From NCBI RefSeq assembly GCF_964213995.1, contig NC_135829.1, forward strand, positions 17,608,001 through 17,672,000: a stretch of 64,000 bases of DNA. The letters run 5' to 3'. Source of the stretch: Mustelus asterias (taxonomy: Eukaryota). Under the pieces are notes generated by a model, which was not told the origin of the DNA, did not search any database, and saw nothing but the letters and a program-made list of their open reading frames with translations. The translations under genes were made by a program, and so were the position numbers. Below are positions 29,354 to 61,686 of the stretch, piece by piece. Within the stretch, counting starts at the first letter, position 1, and every line of letters begins with the position of its first letter.

Positions 29354-29506
29354 CTGGATAGTAAGAGAAGAGATCACATTGAATGGGTTCCAGTTCTGGC
29401 CGGGGACAAATAATAAAATGGCACTGTGATGTCACATGGGATAACGGAGCCTTAGATACAGCGCCGACTGGGAGGATTATACTCAAACCTTGAAACTACT
29501 TACATT

Positions 29507-29538
29507 TTAATTCTTGAACTTCACATTTGCCTCTGTCA
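29507..29538 (-). CDS. Ig receptor copy 1, cytoplasmic micro-exon VTEANVKFKN* (exon 29504-29538)
   Basis: ttttctgtattcttag| acceptor and |gtaagt donor 3 nt after TAA; phase-1 entry matches the TM exon. Confidence 0.75.
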
Positions 29539-29679: not shown

Positions 29680-31180
29680 GGAATGCTGCCATTGTTATTC
29701 CATAATTTCAGATGGGTAGGATAGAGAAAGCAGAAAATAATAGACCCGTTAGTCTGATGTCTGTTGTGGGGAAGTTACTAGGATCTGCTACTGGAACTAA
29801 AGATCGAAAGATTTAGGAGCAGGAGTGTAGGCCATTCAGGCCCTTAAGCCTGCTCAGCCATTGGCTGATCTAATTGTGGTCTCAACTCTACTATCCTTTC
29901 TGCTTCATACAACCTCGTCATTCAGGAATCTCTCGAACTCAATGCAAACATGTAAGTTCCTTCTAACAAACCTAGTTTAATTTAATAAGTGGTTCCCTAA
30001 TTTGGTTGATAAGGGAGTGCATTTGGATGTGACCCATGTAGATTTCTAGACAGAACTCAATAAAGTTCCACACAAGAGGCTGTCATCAAAAATAAAGTGC
30101 ATGGAATTGGAGGCAATGACATGAATATGAAATTGGTTAGGAAGTATAGAAGGCAGACAATAGGGACAATAGGTACATAGTCACATTGGCAGGATGTAAA
30201 TATCAGTATCTCCCAGAACCCCAGCATTTCACTCTATTTATAAATGACTTAGATAAAGCAATAGCGACCTGGATATCTGAGCTTGCTGATGACACCAAGG
30301 CACATTAAGTAGTGCAGACTGCAGTCACAAGGGGACATTGATGGATTAAGTGTGTTAGCAAATTGGCAGCGACAGAGTTCAAAGTGGGGAAGTGTAAAGA
30401 CATCATCCACATCGCACCCAAGACTGCTCAGAGTATTTCGAAATGGTGAGAAGCTTAGAACTCTGGAGGAGCAGAGAGGGAATTAGGGTTCATTCATGTA
30501 AATCACTAAAGGTTCGTTGACAGGAACACAAAATGATGAAAAAGGCTGATGGGATGTTAACCCATCTCACAGAGGCTGGAGTACAAAGGGGGAGAAGTTA
30601 TGCTCCAGTTCTGGGCACTGCGCTTCTGGAAAGTTAATTTGATGAACAGAGATTCATCAGGATGCTAAAAGGAATAAATTATGGGGTTGGGCTTGAATAT
30701 ATTAAGTGGTGATCTAATTGAGGTGATTAAGATGTTTTCAGGATTACACCAGGAAGATCGAGAGAAACTGCTACCTCTGCTGTGAGAGTCTAAAATCAGG
30801 AGAGCCATCCGTGAGGTTAGAGCAGGGCTGTACAGAAAGCACATCTAAGGATAATGGAAATCTGGACCTCTTTCCCCAAAGGGTGTTAGTTTGGGGATCA
30901 ATTGAAAATTTCCTCGGTGAGACTGATAGGTTTTCTATGAGGTATATGAAGGGATGTGGAACCAAGGTGAGCGAATGGAGTAAAGATAGAGATAAAATTA
31001 AAATTAAAATTTAATTAAATGGCAGAACAAGCTCGATGGGCTGAAAGGAAAATTGGGCGGGGATCCTGGATTCAGGATTCAATCCTGGACCGGGGAGCGG
31101 CGCGGGCTTGGAGGGCCGAAGGGCCTGTTCCTGTGCTGTATTGTTCTTTGTTCTTTGTTGTCTCCTCCTGTTCCCATGAT
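29680..31180 (+). mobile_element. Old degraded CR1 in receptor intron (paralog ~52520-53870)
   Basis: Remnants of CR1 RT (aatagacccgttagtctg, ttgctgatgacaccaag, gttctgggcac). Confidence 0.65.
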
Positions 31181-31290: not shown

Positions 31291-31407
31291 CTCTGGCAGA
31301 TTGTTGTCCTCTTCTGATTATGCAGATTACTCCATTAGAGCAAATTAATGCAGCCACATACAAAACCAGGATACCTACACGCATGGAACTGCAACTGGTG
31401 TCAGGAC
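31291..31407 (-). CDS. Ig receptor copy 1, transmembrane exon
   Basis: ttctcctcggtag| ... |gtaagc; 117 nt, phase 1-1; PDTSCSSMRVGILVLYVAALICSNGVICIIRRGQQSAR (hydrophobic helix followed by RR). Confidence 0.85.
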
Positions 31408-31637
31408 CTACCGAGGAGAAGCAACATTAAATTCAGGCTGTGCAATCCAGTGTTCTACATACGGCTCATTGCACTGGCTACCAAACCTTCCCCTCAGAAT
31501 CTAGAATAGTCAATGGCGAAGGAAGGAAATTGAACCAATTTACAACGGGTACAAACTGTACAAACAGACCCAGAATCTCTCAGCTGGAGCTCCTGACATT
31601 GAATGATTCATGTTGCCGATTGTCTTACTTTTTAGAG

Positions 31638-33154
31638 TATCAAGAAGCAGAGGTAATTTTAAGTGTTTGTACCGTTGGATATTAGAAATGAGTTATAGAT
31701 TTACATGAGTTTAGTGTTCCTGTATAAGGAAAGGTAAACCTCCAGTTAGATTCATATTAAACAATGTTTGCTTGTATGGGGGGATTTTTTAGAATCATAG
31801 AATACTACAGTGCAGAAGGAGGCCATTCGGCCCAGTGAGTCTGCACCAAACACAATCCCACCTTATTCCCATAACCCCACATATTTACCCTGCTAATCCC
31901 CCTGACACGAGAGTCTATTTATCATGGCCAATCAACCGAACCCGCAAATCTTTGGATTGTGGGAGAAAACCGAAGCACTCGGAGGAAACCCACCCAGACA
32001 CTGGGAGAATGTGCAAACCCCACACAGACAGGAATTGAACACAGGTCCTTAGTGCTGTGAGGCAGCAGTGCTAACCACTGTGCCACCATTTCAGTTCAAA
32101 CTGTGGTAGCATTATGCTAAGAGAGTTTACAGCGTGTAAAATAGATAAGAGCTTAGAGAAAGAATTAGATGTTGTTTAGCAACCAAGGTTCACTTATAGG
32201 GGAAGAGACCTCACTGTGTTCTTAGTTTAACTGAGCCAGAGTAGAAGGAGCTTAGCAGTGAGAGAGGGAACATCTCTCACTGCTTTGCCAGAAAAAAAGC
32301 CATATAATAGAGTAACGGGCAAGGAAGCAAGTGTCAGAAATCTAAAAACAGCCAGTTAAGGAGGATGAAGAGAAGTCTCCAGGAAGTCTGAAGTTAAAGG
32401 AACAGAGGAAACTGGAACGAGGTTACAGACAGAGTTGAGAAGCTGAAGAGTTTGCTGGTGAAAAACAGAGATATCTGAAATTATTTCAAAGTTTTTGAGA
32501 TTTACTATAGCCTGGAAAGTGACAGTTGAAGCAATTGTGAAGTAATTAGTGACTGGATCTTTTAGCGTTTGTGTGAAAGCTTGAAAGCATTCAAGACAAA
32601 GGAACATTGAAAGGAGAGCTATAAAACCTGGAAGTGAATCCTTGTTGGGAAAAGGTGAAAGAAATAATTGTTTGAAAGAAGATTCTAAAGTGTGTCTTTT
32701 TGAGAGTGGGGTTTGGAATCACTCATGTGGAAGTCAGAGTCCAGTAAGATCAGTTGGCTCATGGTGTGAGAATCATCTGGGGGGATTTGAGAAGAAGTCC
32801 ACAGAAGTTCACTTGGGTGGCGTTTGCCACTTGGTTTCAGAATGGAGTGTGTTTGACCACAGTTAGCCTGTGGTTTAAAGAATTGTGTGTTGAATGAGAC
32901 CATTATAGCATAAGATATATTTTGTAACCTCTGTCATCCTTAAAATCCATGTATATTTGTGAAGATAAGTGGGAATGAAGGAGTATTGTATCATAGTCAA
33001 ACTTTTCATGTTCAATAAATGTTTTTTTGTTGTTAAAAGCTAATTGTTAGTCCTATGACTCTCTTCATTCCCATTTTCTCAAAGATATGTAAAAGTTATG
33101 GTCTTTTGAGCCAAGGTTCCATTTGGGATCTTCCTGTCCAGTAGTGACATACAC
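31638..33154 (+). mobile_element. Solo LTR-like element (V-SINE inserted at ~31789-32088), 3' end shortened
   Basis: Paralog 54326-55859 ends tgtaaca and is flanked by TSD agag; TATA-like 32620-32626, AATAAA 33014-33019. Confidence 0.7.
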
Positions 33155-33168
33155 AGAGACACACTCAC

Positions 33169-33252
33169 TGTTAGTCACTGGAGATATTCCAGATGTTGAG
33201 GTGAGGGCGTCTGGGGATTCACTACTTGAGATTGGACTCCTTGTTAACAGGT
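33169..33252 (-). CDS. Ig receptor copy 1, second Ser/Thr/Pro stalk exon
   Basis: ttatgtttctcag| ... |gtgagt; 84 nt, phase 1-1; DLLTRSPISSSESPDALTSTSGISPVTN. Confidence 0.75.
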
Positions 33253-33398: not shown

Positions 33399-33878
33399 CT
33401 TCATTATTTGTAGGAGTCTCACTGCTGGTCACTGGAGATATTCCAGATGTTGAGGTGTGAGTGTCTGGAGAGTCTGCACTTTTTGTCACACTGAGGGAGA
33501 TGTTTGCTCTAATCTTCCAGACAGGTTTCCCTGAGACCACACCGTGTACAACACAGAGATAGCTCCCAGTGTCCAACTCCTTCACTGAGTGAATAGTGAG
33601 GTTGTGAGTCTGGATTTTATTTGTAGGACTGTTTGAGCTTTGGTTGGAGATTCTTTGTGATGACTCTTTATCCACACAGCAGCGTGTGTTAGAATGTAAG
33701 CTATAACCCTCAATATGAACAGAGTGCAGACACTTGTTAACATTTCCAGATATGATCCAAAACAGAGTGAAGGGCAGAGATTTTCCATTCTCAAACTGGC
33801 AGGGTAAAGTCACATTCTCTCCCTCTGCTACAGTCAGTGACGAGAAAGTTTCAACAGCAGAAAATACTTCATCCGAAT
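33399..33878 (-). CDS. Ig receptor copy 1, IgV domain (D2) plus stalk exon
   Basis: attgtttctag| ... |gtcagt; 480 nt, phase 1-1; V-set hallmarks GENVTLPC, LFW, NLTI, DTGSYLC; extra Cys at 50, 67, 68. Confidence 0.92.
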
Positions 33879-35276: not shown

Positions 35277-35675
35277 CGTCCGGGTTTATCACAAAGAACA
35301 AGTTGTGGTTTTCACATCCCTCCCCTGTCAGGGTTTTCCAGTTTGGACATTTTGATGATTCTGTGGAATCCTGAACCGTGCAGGTAAATATCATCGAATC
35401 ATCACATAGCATCACAGCGAATGTCAGTGAATTCATTTCACCTCCATTTCTTTTGCATGTTTGACACTGCAGCTTCTCTTTCTGTTTCTCATGATCGATA
35501 TTTTCACAATCCTGCATTTTCTTCGCTCCTGTCTCACATTGTATTTTCTCAATTTCTGCTCCAGCACTGAAATCCCGAATGCTGCACAAGGTTCCGACAT
35601 TCCCAGCACCAGTGGGTGTGTTGCATTGCAGAGTGGTGACATCTCCTGATCCTCGAAAATGGACATAGGTGGATC
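35277..35675 (-). CDS. Ig receptor copy 1, Cys-rich atypical Ig domain (D1) exon
   Basis: ccttatccctgcag| ... |gtgagt; 399 nt, phase 1-1, open frame; GDVTTLQC ... SLTF ... DDSMIFTC; 10 Cys. Confidence 0.85.
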
Positions 35676-38907: not shown

Positions 38908-38962
38908 CAGCAACATGTTGGAAGAGAAGAAAAAGACCCACAAACAAAGCACCGAGTGCCAT
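38908..38962 (-). CDS. Ig receptor copy 1, signal-peptide exon (proximal leader L1)
   Basis: gaaATGg start; MALGALFVGLFLLFQHVA g|gtaagg; phase 1, joins the D1 exon in frame. Confidence 0.88.
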
Positions 38963-43921: not shown

Positions 43922-43976
43922 CAGCAACATGTTGGAAGAGAAGAAAAAGACCCACAAACAAAGCACCGAGTGCCAT
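43922..43976 (-). CDS. Orphan leader exon L2 (unit lacks gene body)
   Basis: Identical MALGALFVGLFLLFQHVA exon with intact GTAAGG donor. Confidence 0.7.
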
Positions 43977-52197: not shown

Positions 52198-52347
52198 CTG
52201 GATAAGAGAAGAGATCACATTGAATGGGTTCCAGTTCAGGCCGGGGACAAATCATGAAATGGCACTGTGATGTCACATGGGATAACGGAGCCTTAGATAC
52301 AGCGCCGACTGGGAGGATTATACTCAAACAGTGAAACTACTTACATT

Positions 52348-52379
52348 TTAATTCTTGAACTTCACATTTGCCTCTGTCA
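52348..52379 (-). CDS. Ig receptor copy 2, cytoplasmic micro-exon VTEANVKFKN* (exon 52345-52379)
   Basis: Identical to the copy 1 exon and splice sites. Confidence 0.75.
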
Positions 52380-53978: not shown

Positions 53979-54095
53979 CTCTGGCAGATTGTTGTCCTCT
54001 TCTGATTATGCAGATTACTCCATTAGAGCAAATTAATGCAGCCACATACAAAACCAGGATACCTACACGCATGGAACTGCAACTGGTGTCAGGAC
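53979..54095 (-). CDS. Ig receptor copy 2, transmembrane exon
   Basis: Identical to 31291-31407. Confidence 0.85.
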
Positions 54096-54325
54096 CTACC
54101 GAGGAGAAGCAACATTAAATTCAGGCTGTGCAATCCAGTGTTCTACATACGGCTCATTGCACTGGCTACCAAACCTTCCCCTCAGAATCTAGAATAGTCA
54201 ATGGCGAAGGAAGGAAATTGAACCAATTTACAACGGGTACAAACTGTACAAACAGACCCAGAATCTCTCAGCTGGAGCTCCTGACATTGAATGATTCATG
54301 TTGCCGATTGTCTTACTTTTTAGAG

Positions 54326-55859
54326 TATCAAGAAGCAGAGGTAATTTTAAGTGTTTGTACCGTTGGATATTAGAAATGAGTTATAGATTTACATGAGTTT
54401 AGTGTTCCTGTATAAGGAAAGGTAAACCTCCAGTTAGATTCATATTAAACAATGTTTGCTTGTATGGGGGGATTTTTTAGAATCATAGAATCCTACAGTG
54501 CAGAAGGAGGCCATTCGGCCCAGTGAGTCTGCACCAAACACAATCCCACTTTATTCCCATAACCCCACATATTTACCCTGCTAATCCCCCTGACACGAGA
54601 GTCTATTTATCATGGCCAATCAACCGAACCCGCAAATCTTTGGATTGTGGGAGAAAACCGAAGCACTCGGAGGAAACCCACCCAGACACTGGGAGAATGT
54701 GCAAACCCCACACAGACAGGAATTGAACACAGGTCCTTAGTGCTGTGAGGCAGCAGTGCTAACCACTGTGATACCATTTCAGTTCAAACTGTGGTAGCAT
54801 TATGCTAAGAGTGTTTACAGCGTGTAAAATAGATAAGAGCTTAGAGAAAGAATTAGATGTTGTTTAGCAACCAAGGTTCACTTATAGGGGAAGAGACCTC
54901 ACTGTGTTCTTAGTTTAACTGAGCCAGAGTAGAAGGAGCTTCACAGTGAGAGAGGGAACATCTCTCACTGCTTTGCCAGAAAAAAAGCCATATAAAAATA
55001 GAGTAACGGGCAAACAAGCAAGTGTCAGAAATCTAAAAACAGCCAGTTAAGGAGGATGAAGAGAAGTCTCCAGGAAGTCTGAAGTTAAAGGAACAGAGGA
55101 AACTGGAACGAGGTTACAGACAGAGTTGAGAAGCTGAAGAGTTTGCTAGTGAAAAACAGAGATATCTGAAATTATTTCAAGATATGTGAGATTTGCTACA
55201 GCCTGTGAAGTGATAGTTGAAGCAATTGTGAAGTAATTAGTGACTGGATCTTTTAGTGTTTGTGTGAAAGCTTGAAAGCATTCAAGACAAAGGAACATTG
55301 AACCGAGAGCTATAAAACTTCGAAGTGGATCCTTGTTGGGAAAGGGTGATTGAAATAATTGTTTGAAAGAAGATTCTAAAGTGTGTCTTTTTGAGAGTGG
55401 GGTTTGGAATCACTCATGTGGAAGTCAGAGTCCAGTAAGATCAGTTGGCTCATGGTGTGAGAATCATCTGGGGGGATTTGAGAAGAAGTCCACAGAAGTT
55501 CACTTGGGTGGCATCTGCCACTTGGTTTCAGAATGGAGTGTGTTTGACCACAGTTAGCCTGTGGTTTAAAGGGATTGTGTGTTTCGTGAGACCATTATAG
55601 CATAAGATATATCTTGTAACCTCTGTCATCCTTAAAATCCATGTATATTTGTGAAGATAAATGGGAGTGAAAGAGTATTGTATTATAGTCAAACTTTTCA
55701 TGTTCAATTAATGTTTTCTGTTGTTAAAAGCTAATTGTTAGTCCTGTGACTCTCTTCATTCCCATTTTCTAAAAGATATGTAAAAGTTACGGTCTTTTGA
55801 GCCAAGGTTCCATTTGGGATCTTCCGGTCCAAGTAGTAACATACACAGGGGCTGTAACA
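54326..55859 (+). mobile_element. Solo LTR-like element with 4-bp TSD (V-SINE inside, ~54478-54776)
   Basis: TSD agag at 54322-54325 and 55860-55863; ends ggggctgtaaca; starts tatcaag (possibly a decayed TG). Confidence 0.72.
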
Positions 55860-55869
55860 AGAGATACAC

Positions 55870-55953
55870 TGTTAGTCACTGGAGATATTCCAGATGTTGA
55901 GGTGAGGGTGTCTGGGGATTCACTACTTGAGACTGGACTCCTTGTTACCTGGT
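55870..55953 (-). CDS. Ig receptor copy 2, second stalk exon (donor weak; may be skipped or read through)
   Basis: Acceptor ttatgttcctcag|; DQVTRSPVSSSESPDTLTSTSGISPVTN; the in-phase donor position reads GTGTAT. Confidence 0.5.
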
Positions 55954-56099: not shown

Positions 56100-56579
56100 C
56101 TTCATTATTTGTAGGAGTTCCACTGCTGGTCACTGGAGATATTCCAGATGTTGAGGTGTGAGTGTCTGGAGAGTCTGCACTTTTTGTCACACTGAGGGAG
56201 ATGTTTGCTGTAATCTTCCAGACAGGTTTCCCTGAAGCCTGACCGTGTACAACACAGAGATAGCTCCCAGTGTCCAACTCCTTCACTGAGTGAATAGTGA
56301 GGTTGTGAGTCTGGATTTTATTTGTTGGATTGTCTGAGCTTTGGATAGAGATTCTTTGTGATGACTCTTTATCCACACAGCAGCGTGTGTTAGAATGTAA
56401 GCTATAATCCTCAATATGAACAGAGTGCAGACACTTGTTAACATTTCCAGATATGATCCAAAACAGAGTGAAGGGCAGAGATTTTCTATTCTCAAACTGG
56501 CAGGGTAAAGTCACATTCTCTCCCTCTGCTACAGTCAGTGACGAGAAAGTTTCAACTGTAGAAAATACTTCATCCGAAT
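56100..56579 (-). CDS. Ig receptor copy 2, IgV domain (D2) plus stalk exon
   Basis: 480 nt, canonical |gtaagt donor; 10 aa differences from copy 1. Confidence 0.92.
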
Positions 56580-57999: not shown

Positions 58000-58398
58000 C
58001 GTCCGGGTTTATCACAAAGAACAAGTTGTGGTTTTCACATCCCTCCCCTGTCAGGGTTTCCCAGTTTGGACATTTTGATGATTCTGTGGAATCCTGAACC
58101 GTGCAGGTAAATATCATTGAATCATCACATAGCATCACAGCGAATGTCAGTGAATTCATTTCACCTCCATTTCTTTTGCATTTTCGACACTGCAGCTTCT
58201 CTTTCTGTTTCTCATGATCGATATTTTCACAATCCTGCATTTTCTTCGCTCCTGTCTCACATTGTATTTTCTCAATTTCTGCTCCAGCACTGAAATCCCG
58301 AATGCTGCACAAGGTTCCGACATTCCCAGCACCAGTGGGTGTGTTGCATTGCAGAGTGGTGACATCTCCTGATCCTCGAAAATGGACATAGGTGGATC
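58000..58398 (-). CDS. Ig receptor copy 2, Cys-rich D1 exon
   Basis: 399 nt, open frame, same splice sites; all 10 Cys kept; 3 aa differences from copy 1. Confidence 0.85.
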
Positions 58399-61631: not shown

Positions 61632-61686
61632 CTGCAACATGTTGGAAGAGAAGAAAAAGACCCACAAACAAAGCACCGAGTGCCAT
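61632..61686 (-). CDS. Ig receptor copy 2, signal-peptide exon (L4)
   Basis: MALGALFVGLFLLFQHVA g|gtaagg. Confidence 0.88.

Follow-up and report, generated by a model that had tools for sequence, protein, structure and literature searches.

Receptor gene copies and their splice forms

The window, as the whole stretch of DNA analyzed here is called, covers 64,000 nt (17,608,001 to 17,672,000 of NC_135829.1) of the 3.68-Gb genome of Mustelus asterias (GCF_964213995.1) and carries two copies of a receptor gene whose product is a 100% match to the NCBI 'uncharacterized protein LOC144480428' of this species. In DNA and protein searches, exactly three copies were found in the genome, all on the minus strand: copies 1 and 2 inside the window and copy 3 (LOC144480561) ~28 kb past it, where it went unnoticed in the original prediction, which was confined to the window. 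The receptor layout runs from a leader exon through a cysteine-rich first domain, for which Pfam gave no match, an Ig V-set exon, an 84-nt Ser/Thr stalk exon, and a transmembrane (TM) exon to a short tail (Table 1). The end of the V exon and the intron after it recur in tandem as the stalk exon and its intron. Copies 1 and 2, which differ by ~3.6% over 11 kb, diverge from copy 3 at window position 31496, beyond which they have a TM exon of another type and a ~17-residue tail, while copy 3 encodes a hydrophobic TM segment and a long tail carrying five tyrosines.

Table 1. Features of the receptor locus, in window coordinates
Feature	Position	Strand
Copy 1, nearest leader (signal peptide) exon; other leader-exon copies at 43976, 48647	38908..38962	-
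Copy 1, first Ig-like exon, Cys-rich, divergent, no Pfam match	35277..35675	-
Copy 1, Ig V-set exon and first Ser/Thr stalk unit; weakened donor AAG|GTCAGT	33399..33878	-
Copy 1, cassette stalk exon, 84 nt, phase 1-1	33169..33252	-
AGTG-AGTG duplication creating donor ACA|GTGAGT (GT at 33168), also in copy 3	33162..33169	-
Copy 1, proximal target-site duplication AGAG, adjoining the 13-bp deletion of the LTR end	33155..33158	+
Copy 1, LTR-like insert in antisense orientation, 13 bp missing from one end	31638..33154	+
SINE nested in the insert, present in all three copies	31790..32090	.
Copy 1, distal target-site duplication AGAG	31634..31637	+
Copy 1, stranded probable original donor AAA|GTAAGA	31623..31628	-
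Copy 1, short-tail-type TM exon (ICSNG), identical in copy 2	31291..31407	-
Copy 1, small last coding exon (VTEANVKFKN*)	29504..29538	-
Copy 2, nearest leader exon	61632..61686	-
Copy 2, first Ig-like exon	58000..58398	-
Copy 2, Ig V-set exon, strong donor AAG|GTAAGT	56100..56579	-
Copy 2, stalk exon, intact acceptor, then just the weak ACA|GTGTAT (GT at 55869, same phase)	55870..55953	-
Copy 2, proximal target-site duplication AGAG	55860..55863	+
Copy 2, read-through stop codon	55787..55789	-
Copy 2, LTR-like insert, both ends intact, 1,534 bp with SINE	54326..55859	+
AATAAA within the nested SINE of copy 2 alone, AATAAG in the other two copies; chance expectation 0.88	54550..54555	-
Copy 2, distal target-site duplication AGAG	54322..54325	+
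Copy 2, stranded probable original donor	54311..54316	-
Copy 2, TM exon	53979..54095	-
Copy 2, small last coding exon	52345..52379	-

Several other rearrangements mark the region. Tandem duplications of 5-11 kb with 91-99% identity occupy window positions 36600-64000 and continue beyond (L007), and they account for five copies of the leader exon of short-tail type (38962, 43976, 48647, 61686, and 66367); near window-equivalent 69970 they also left the last exons in a third, orphan copy. A repeat insertion after the TM exon of copy 1 (window about 31050-31170), which copy 2 does not have, is the source of the alternative C-terminus in NCBI isoforms X1 and X4 (P0013 and P0016). The introns of copy 3 hold two LTR-retrotransposon-like elements of 4.7 kb that are 96% identical to each other (L008, window-equivalent about 82156-86865, and L010-L011, about 103049-107760), in one of which stretches similar to coding sequence for reverse transcriptase and integrase can be made out by eye.

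When the exons of copy 1 are joined at 33168, NCBI protein P0002 is reproduced exactly, and skipping the stalk exon gives P0014 (360 aa); among the copy 1 models, the exon is included in P0002 and P0013 and skipped in P0014 and P0016. It is likewise included (P0017 and P0003) or skipped (P0015) in the models of copy 3, and both forms are on record for S. torazame (P0018/P0004), S. canicula (P0050/P0036), and Pristiophorus (P0032/P0051), with a Heterodontus-like record that includes it (P0064 vs P0019). According to these gene models, the stalk exon is an old cassette exon, and the GTGAGT donor that ends it would be used in both copies 1 and 3. Because copies 1 and 3 and other sharks skip the exon too, a short stalk does not set copy 2 apart, and with both forms on record in other sharks, exon skipping as a novelty was rejected. 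Five other species contribute nine short-tail records, and all nine lack the second stalk unit; copy 1 is the only gene in which a short-tail form with a long stalk is seen.

These models bear on the protein forms that had been assigned to the two copies. Copy 1 was proposed to be a long-stalk membrane form, and P0002 and P0013 do use the donor in question, although not exclusively, as P0014 skips the exon. Copy 2 was proposed to be a short-stalk form, and skipping does leave it an open frame of 360 aa, but the same skipping is equally annotated in copies 1 and 3. The proposed functional split between copies 1 and 2 is mostly not supported. The weak GT of copy 2 lies in the place and phase of the copy 1 donor, and therefore any use of it would yield the same 388-aa form, making the difference between the copies one of degree.

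RNA data were also inspected. Of 108 RNA joints from four runs on copy 2, the 15 listed all fell within the nested SINE; in a relative's RNA run, one contig ended at the V-exon boundary and another spanned only the TM exon; and in run X9, one long contig crossed intron and exon unspliced. None of these observations has a bearing on expression.

The insert and the interrupted exon

In copy 2, the stalk exon is interrupted within its last codons by an element that, on the plus strand, starts with TATCAAGA and ends with GTAACA. The flanks on either side read ...ACTAACAGTGTATCTCT and CTCTAAAAA|GTAAGAC, with the stranded GT at 54316 (31628 in copy 1). As had been predicted, removing the element together with one AGAG target-site duplication (TSD) rejoins a 99-nt exon that ends in ...VTNSVSLK plus a phase-1 A before GTAAGA; flanks, TSDs, and coordinates all check. 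The tandem origin of the exon allows a further comparison: the upstream unit reads AGTGCAACTCCTACAAATAATGAAG|GTAAGTCAGACAAT and, as AGTG-CAACTCC-TACAAA...GTAAGTCAGACAAT, has no extra AGTG, and the copy 2 flanks read AGTGTATCTCT and CTCTAAAAA|GTAAGACAAT.

The insert belongs to a large, dispersed, and old family (3,486 candidates, of which 40 were scored) and is 76-83% identical to the 27 best other family copies. Among the 14 of these 27 that have both ends, the 4-bp flanks match in 55% of cases vs 28% after permutation (p 5e-5), and flanks of 3, 5, or 6 bp show no excess matching. Family copies start with TG in 10/14 cases and end with CA in 10/14, while the insert in the receptor genes starts with TA (decayed) and ends with CA. 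Flanks of different family copies are unrelated, with 0 end-adjoining matches among 39. Beside the 33 copies examined, no internal retroelement body turned up, and for the six copies followed by NNTGG, the common downstream sequence amounts to one 306-nt match at differing distances from the end. The label 'LTR' is applied because ends, TSD, size, and copy number fit, and the insert is likely the solo LTR of an LTR retroelement (Gypsy or ERV).

Orthologs speak to the order of events. Orthologous stalk exons run in frame past the insertion point, reading VTTSVTPLKSE in S. canicula, VTSNVTPLNSK in S. torazame, and VANSISPKNSL in Carcharodon; the comparison was made at the protein level, and the absence of the insertion from these orthologs is likewise deduced from their proteins. 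The residue at the junction changes from E (skipped) to K (included) in S. torazame and from D to N in S. canicula, so the ortholog exons end in a phase-1 A, like AAA A|GTAAGA, and the stranded GTAAGA is likely the original donor. The original prediction had looked to LTR-free orthologs ending at SVSLK; none ends exactly there, and the exons instead run on for three more residues, leaving the rebuilt exon three codons (9 nt) shorter than its orthologs. Since the orthologous exons continue beyond the insertion point, the proposed order, in which the insertion split the exon from its donor and a repair followed, holds. Considering that the stranded donor is weak and that the rebuilt exon falls 9 nt short of its orthologs, decay of the exon may have begun ahead of the insertion.

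Donor repair, mosaic copies, and the state of copy 2

In copy 1, as the original prediction described, an extra AGTG is present, the LTR end lacks 13 nt, and an in-phase ACA|GTGAGT lies at 33168; the exon closed by this donor is 84 nt long with phase 1-1. The junction of copy 3 (AACAGTG AGTG TATCTCT GTGTATG) carries the same 4-bp duplication and the same 13-bp deletion. At the copy 2 junction, ACA|GTGTAT at 55869 stands without an extra AGTG.

The scoring of the three donors that the original prediction had called for was run by U1 pairing, that is, donor strength was taken as the U1 duplex energy in kcal/mol, a crude measure. By this measure the new donor ACA|GTGAGT scores -7.6 kcal/mol, placing it in the top 2-4% of the 7,077 GT sites in the window, the copy 2 sequence ACA|GTGTAT scores -3.9 (about the top 30-40%), and the stranded donor is weak at -4.5; the donors of the gene models range from -6.5 to -10.6, and the median of the 7,077 sites is -2.4. 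In copy 2, no strong in-phase donor was found within 400 nt after the stalk exon.

Other candidate splice sites differ among the copies. The V-exon donor of copy 1 (33398) is weakened to GTCAGT (-6.5), and copy 1 has gained a weak in-phase GCA|GTGAGA (33422; -4.6) 24 nt upstream of it; both changes are absent from copies 2 and 3. A strong CAG|GTAACA (-8.0) lies 5 nt into the stalk exon of copies 2 (55948) and 3, but not of copy 1, and could influence exon recognition. Near the distal LTR end is a pyrimidine-rich acceptor that, together with the stranded donor, could make a stop-containing exon of 91 nt (window 31629-31719 and 54317-54407; 96 nt in copy 3).

The relationships of the three copies change along the insert. 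In the proximal LTR, with sites polarized on other family copies (8 sites unclear), copies 1 and 3 share eight derived sites, copies 2 and 3 share one, and copies 1 and 2 share none, with 8, 14, and 10 private derived sites in copies 1, 2, and 3, respectively. In the stalk exon, copies 2 and 3 are the closest (83/84), and the distal 294 bp show no difference between copies 1 and 2. Sites at which one copy differs from the other two are clustered (98 runs vs 139 expected, p 5e-5, a value somewhat inflated by the per-base counting of multi-base changes). The three genes are mosaics, and the GTGAGT repair common to copies 1 and 3 arose once. Copy 2 is read as the earlier state because 19/25 other repeat copies keep the LTR end that is missing from copies 1 and 3. 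The claim that two paralogs had resolved the insertion differently thus gives way to a single repair shared by copies 1 and 3 with copy 2 merely unrepaired, and the idea that copy 2 had 'resolved' the insertion at all was rejected, as it shows no sign of adaptive resolution and retains the unrepaired junction.

We consider it probable that the LTR split the exon, that copies 1 and 3 share one later repair, and that copy 2 is unrepaired and likely mostly skips the exon. The feature is real and the insertion and repair history is well supported, and its steps may be laid out as follows: (i) the insertion made a 4-bp target duplication and stranded CTCTAAAAA|GTAAGA about 1.5 kb downstream, as the flanks of copy 2 record; (ii) it would have been tolerated because the exon was symmetric (phase 1-1) and already optional, being alternatively skipped; (iii) the AGTG duplication and the loss of the 13-bp LTR end, which are shared derived characters, occurred a single time, in a segment from which those of copies 1 and 3 both descend; and (iv) exchange between copy 3 with its long tail and copies 1 and 2 with their short tails, by gene conversion or unequal crossing-over, would have homogenized the ectodomains, as in all six sharks that have both types, and spread the LTR and the repaired donor from partner to partner. 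Copies 1 and 3 are accordingly predicted to give long- and short-stalk membrane forms, the end of the long stalk being 9 residues shorter than in orthologs. Copy 2, if expressed, would give mainly the 360-aa short-stalk membrane form, and its read-through transcripts would likely be minor or degraded.

For GTGAGT to predate the LTR, or to have arisen independently in copies 1 and 3, copy 2 would need to have lost the donor. The upstream tandem unit of copy 1 does likewise read AGTGAG, but that unit lacks AGTGAG in copies 2 and 3 and in orthologs. Moreover, copy 2 has an intact LTR end and both TSDs; the duplication, the deletion, and the eight derived sites are common to copies 1 and 3; and ortholog exons extend 9 residues beyond the GTGAGT position. 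Largely refuted by the orthologs, the LTR end, and the shared derived characters, an ancestral GTGAGT was rejected, and the whole reading is highly improbable. A better, though still doubtful, case can be made for copy 2 being a recent duplicate that is silent or does no work, or else a divergent allele that the assembly placed in tandem, with a junction of no consequence. Copy 2 alleles (13 substitutions) occur in none of the seven Mustelus protein records in the cluster, several 91-99% tandem duplications and five leader-exon copies lie in the region, and the distal LTR end and TM exon are identical to those of copy 1. Nevertheless, the leader, both Ig, TM, and last exons of copy 2 are all intact, bounded by GT-AG, and leave a frame of 360 aa open; copy 2 also stands ~3.6% from copy 1 over those 11 kb, and its 14 private derived sites indicate that its proximal LTR segment is old. 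A silent copy 2 is compatible with the same insertion and repair history.

The original prediction also raised the possibility that copy 2 encodes a secreted decoy. Its sequence features were confirmed: with just GTGTAT after the exon, read-through gives ...SVSLVTAPVYVTTWTGRSQMEPWLKRP*, a 366-aa product with an intact signal peptide whose frame stops before the TM exon and whose best 19-residue hydropathy in the last 60 residues is 0.96 vs 2.58 for the TM segment. Copy 2 as a decoy gene would thus read through into the LTR, stop at 55789, and be cleaved near the AATAAA at 54555, for which the intact acceptor, the absence of a strong in-phase donor within those 400 nt, the TM-less product, and an intronic gene-strand AATAAA found in copy 2 alone of the three copies all speak. 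However, under exon definition, the usual fate of an exon that lacks a donor is to be skipped. An early stop without intronic polyadenylation would also likely lead to decay, so a decoy requires such polyadenylation, and the single AATAAA, 1.23 kb past the stop, matches the 0.88 expected by composition in the 1.69-kb stretch; copy 3 has an ATTAAA within the same intron, and the seven Mustelus records include no annotated copy 2 protein. Taken together, a secreted-decoy gene seems unlikely. A wider scenario, in which one insertion yielded a receptor, partner, and decoy set, the repair spreading by conversion in two genes and the third secreting its product by way of a SINE-derived AATAAA, is more unlikely still.

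There is nonetheless precedent for a decoy of this kind. U1 binding suppresses intronic polyadenylation (reviewed in PMC3826338), and, as described in PMC6877088, soluble PD-L1 arises in CD274-L2A from a weak human donor (GUAAUA) and a retroelement poly(A) signal that give a TM-less read-through form, while rodents have the consensus GUGAGU and have lost the poly(A) signal. There as here, a retroelement directly follows the last ectodomain exon of an Ig-superfamily gene (PMC6877088), and the contrast between human and rodent donors mirrors that between copy 2 and copies 1 and 3. Unlike the shark locus, however, the CD274-L2A element is intronic, and its poly(A) site and protein have been demonstrated (PMC6877088), whereas the shark element lies inside an exon that can be skipped in frame, the contrast is between paralogs, and the decoy transcript is hypothetical. 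IL18R1-Short, a LINE2-derived decoy receptor, is a similar case of a transposable element truncating an immune receptor by intronic polyadenylation; it is described with RNA-seq and functional data and as having no intracellular signaling domain (PMC13232192), while the shark decoy form is hypothetical and would be TM-less. In Pristiophorus, three models (P0011, P0027, and P0061) skip the TM exon in frame and keep the tail, and therefore TM-less isoforms are annotated in this receptor family without the LTR.

In returning to the preferred history of insertion and a single repair, this single locus records an exon cut from its donor by a retroelement, its rescue by a 4-bp duplication, and the unrepaired state next door. 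It is a new case of known processes, namely insertion at an exon end, a new donor that rescues the exon, and homogenization among paralogs that spreads the change. The biological effect is probably small because the exon was already optional and the types of process are known.

A shark-wide receptor pair

Long-tail and short-tail receptor types are both present in six sharks. In trees of 17 rows (one isoform per gene, with fragments and TM-less records excluded), the ectodomains of long- and short-tail members pair by species in 6/6 species, while in the TM tree all six short-tail members group together (100/99). The homogenized tract in Mustelus asterias (35774 to 31496) spans the LTR, and because the tract includes it, both tail types carry the LTR. 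Within-species homogenization of ectodomains therefore likely carried the insertion and the repair between the partners, which suggests that the ectodomain homogenization of paired receptors also carries intronic insertions and splice-site repairs.

The short-tail TM segment contains Asp in 5/6 species and Asn in Mustelus asterias, so copies 1 and 2 do not have the acidic residue. The five tyrosines of the long tail lie in conserved settings (LPYSVF, VAYAVT, HVYCLI, TYSLI, and NPIYSKM) that are mostly non-canonical and just loosely ITIM-like by the consensus given in PMC12447643. This arrangement resembles that of paired receptors with homogenized ligand-binding domains, such as KLRC, KLRI, KLRB, KLRA, and PIR (PMC3210942), and of CD300A/CD300C (PMC12447643), in which a long-tail member with tyrosine motifs accompanies a short-tail member and the ectodomains are most alike within species. 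CD300C signals via the acidic TM residue E191 (PMC12447643), a counterpart to the Asp of the shark short-tail type. Unlike these paired leukocyte receptors, the shark family has two extracellular domains, the first of them cysteine-rich and without a Pfam match. The likeness to CD300 lies in the layout of the pair. We would describe the genes as putative paired immune receptors.

Resemblance to the CD28 family (CD28HL1-3 and CD28X) was considered as well, given that these are ancient V-domain receptors with a stalk, a TM segment, and tyrosine motifs in sharks and basal bony fish (PMC11599192). CD28 members are described there as having a single V domain and CDR3 proline motifs, whereas the shark receptor has two extracellular domain exons and no PPP/EIP motif after the F-strand Cys (YLCVVHG...GKPVWK); by the criteria given in PMC11599192, membership in the CD28 family was rejected.

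No paper on the locus or receptor family was found in the literature searched, and structural and sequence searches supplied no family name: AlphaFold on an 18-row alignment reached a mean pLDDT of 38, Foldseek gave only generic tandem Ig-V folds, a PDB sequence search just weak TCR-alpha stretches, the Atlas only generic V-set clusters with a PD-1 cluster as one neighbor, and a 'near length' homolog search nothing. A profile search found 80 proteins. Of the distant relatives, 10 were looked up; 9 have names, all of them uncharacterized or hypothetical, and come from sturgeon, gar, lungfish, frog, turtle, lizards, and echidna. The family is unnamed and may be an ancient two-Ig family of jawed vertebrates. 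For comparative immunology, this uncharacterized pair, whose TM segment can carry an acidic residue and whose relatives range from sturgeon to echidna, is a better lead than the splice repair itself. In Heptranchias, the short-tail model has its two-domain unit duplicated to give four domains (P0001 and P0047-P0049), which may reflect either a genuine duplication or the fusion of two genes in the model.
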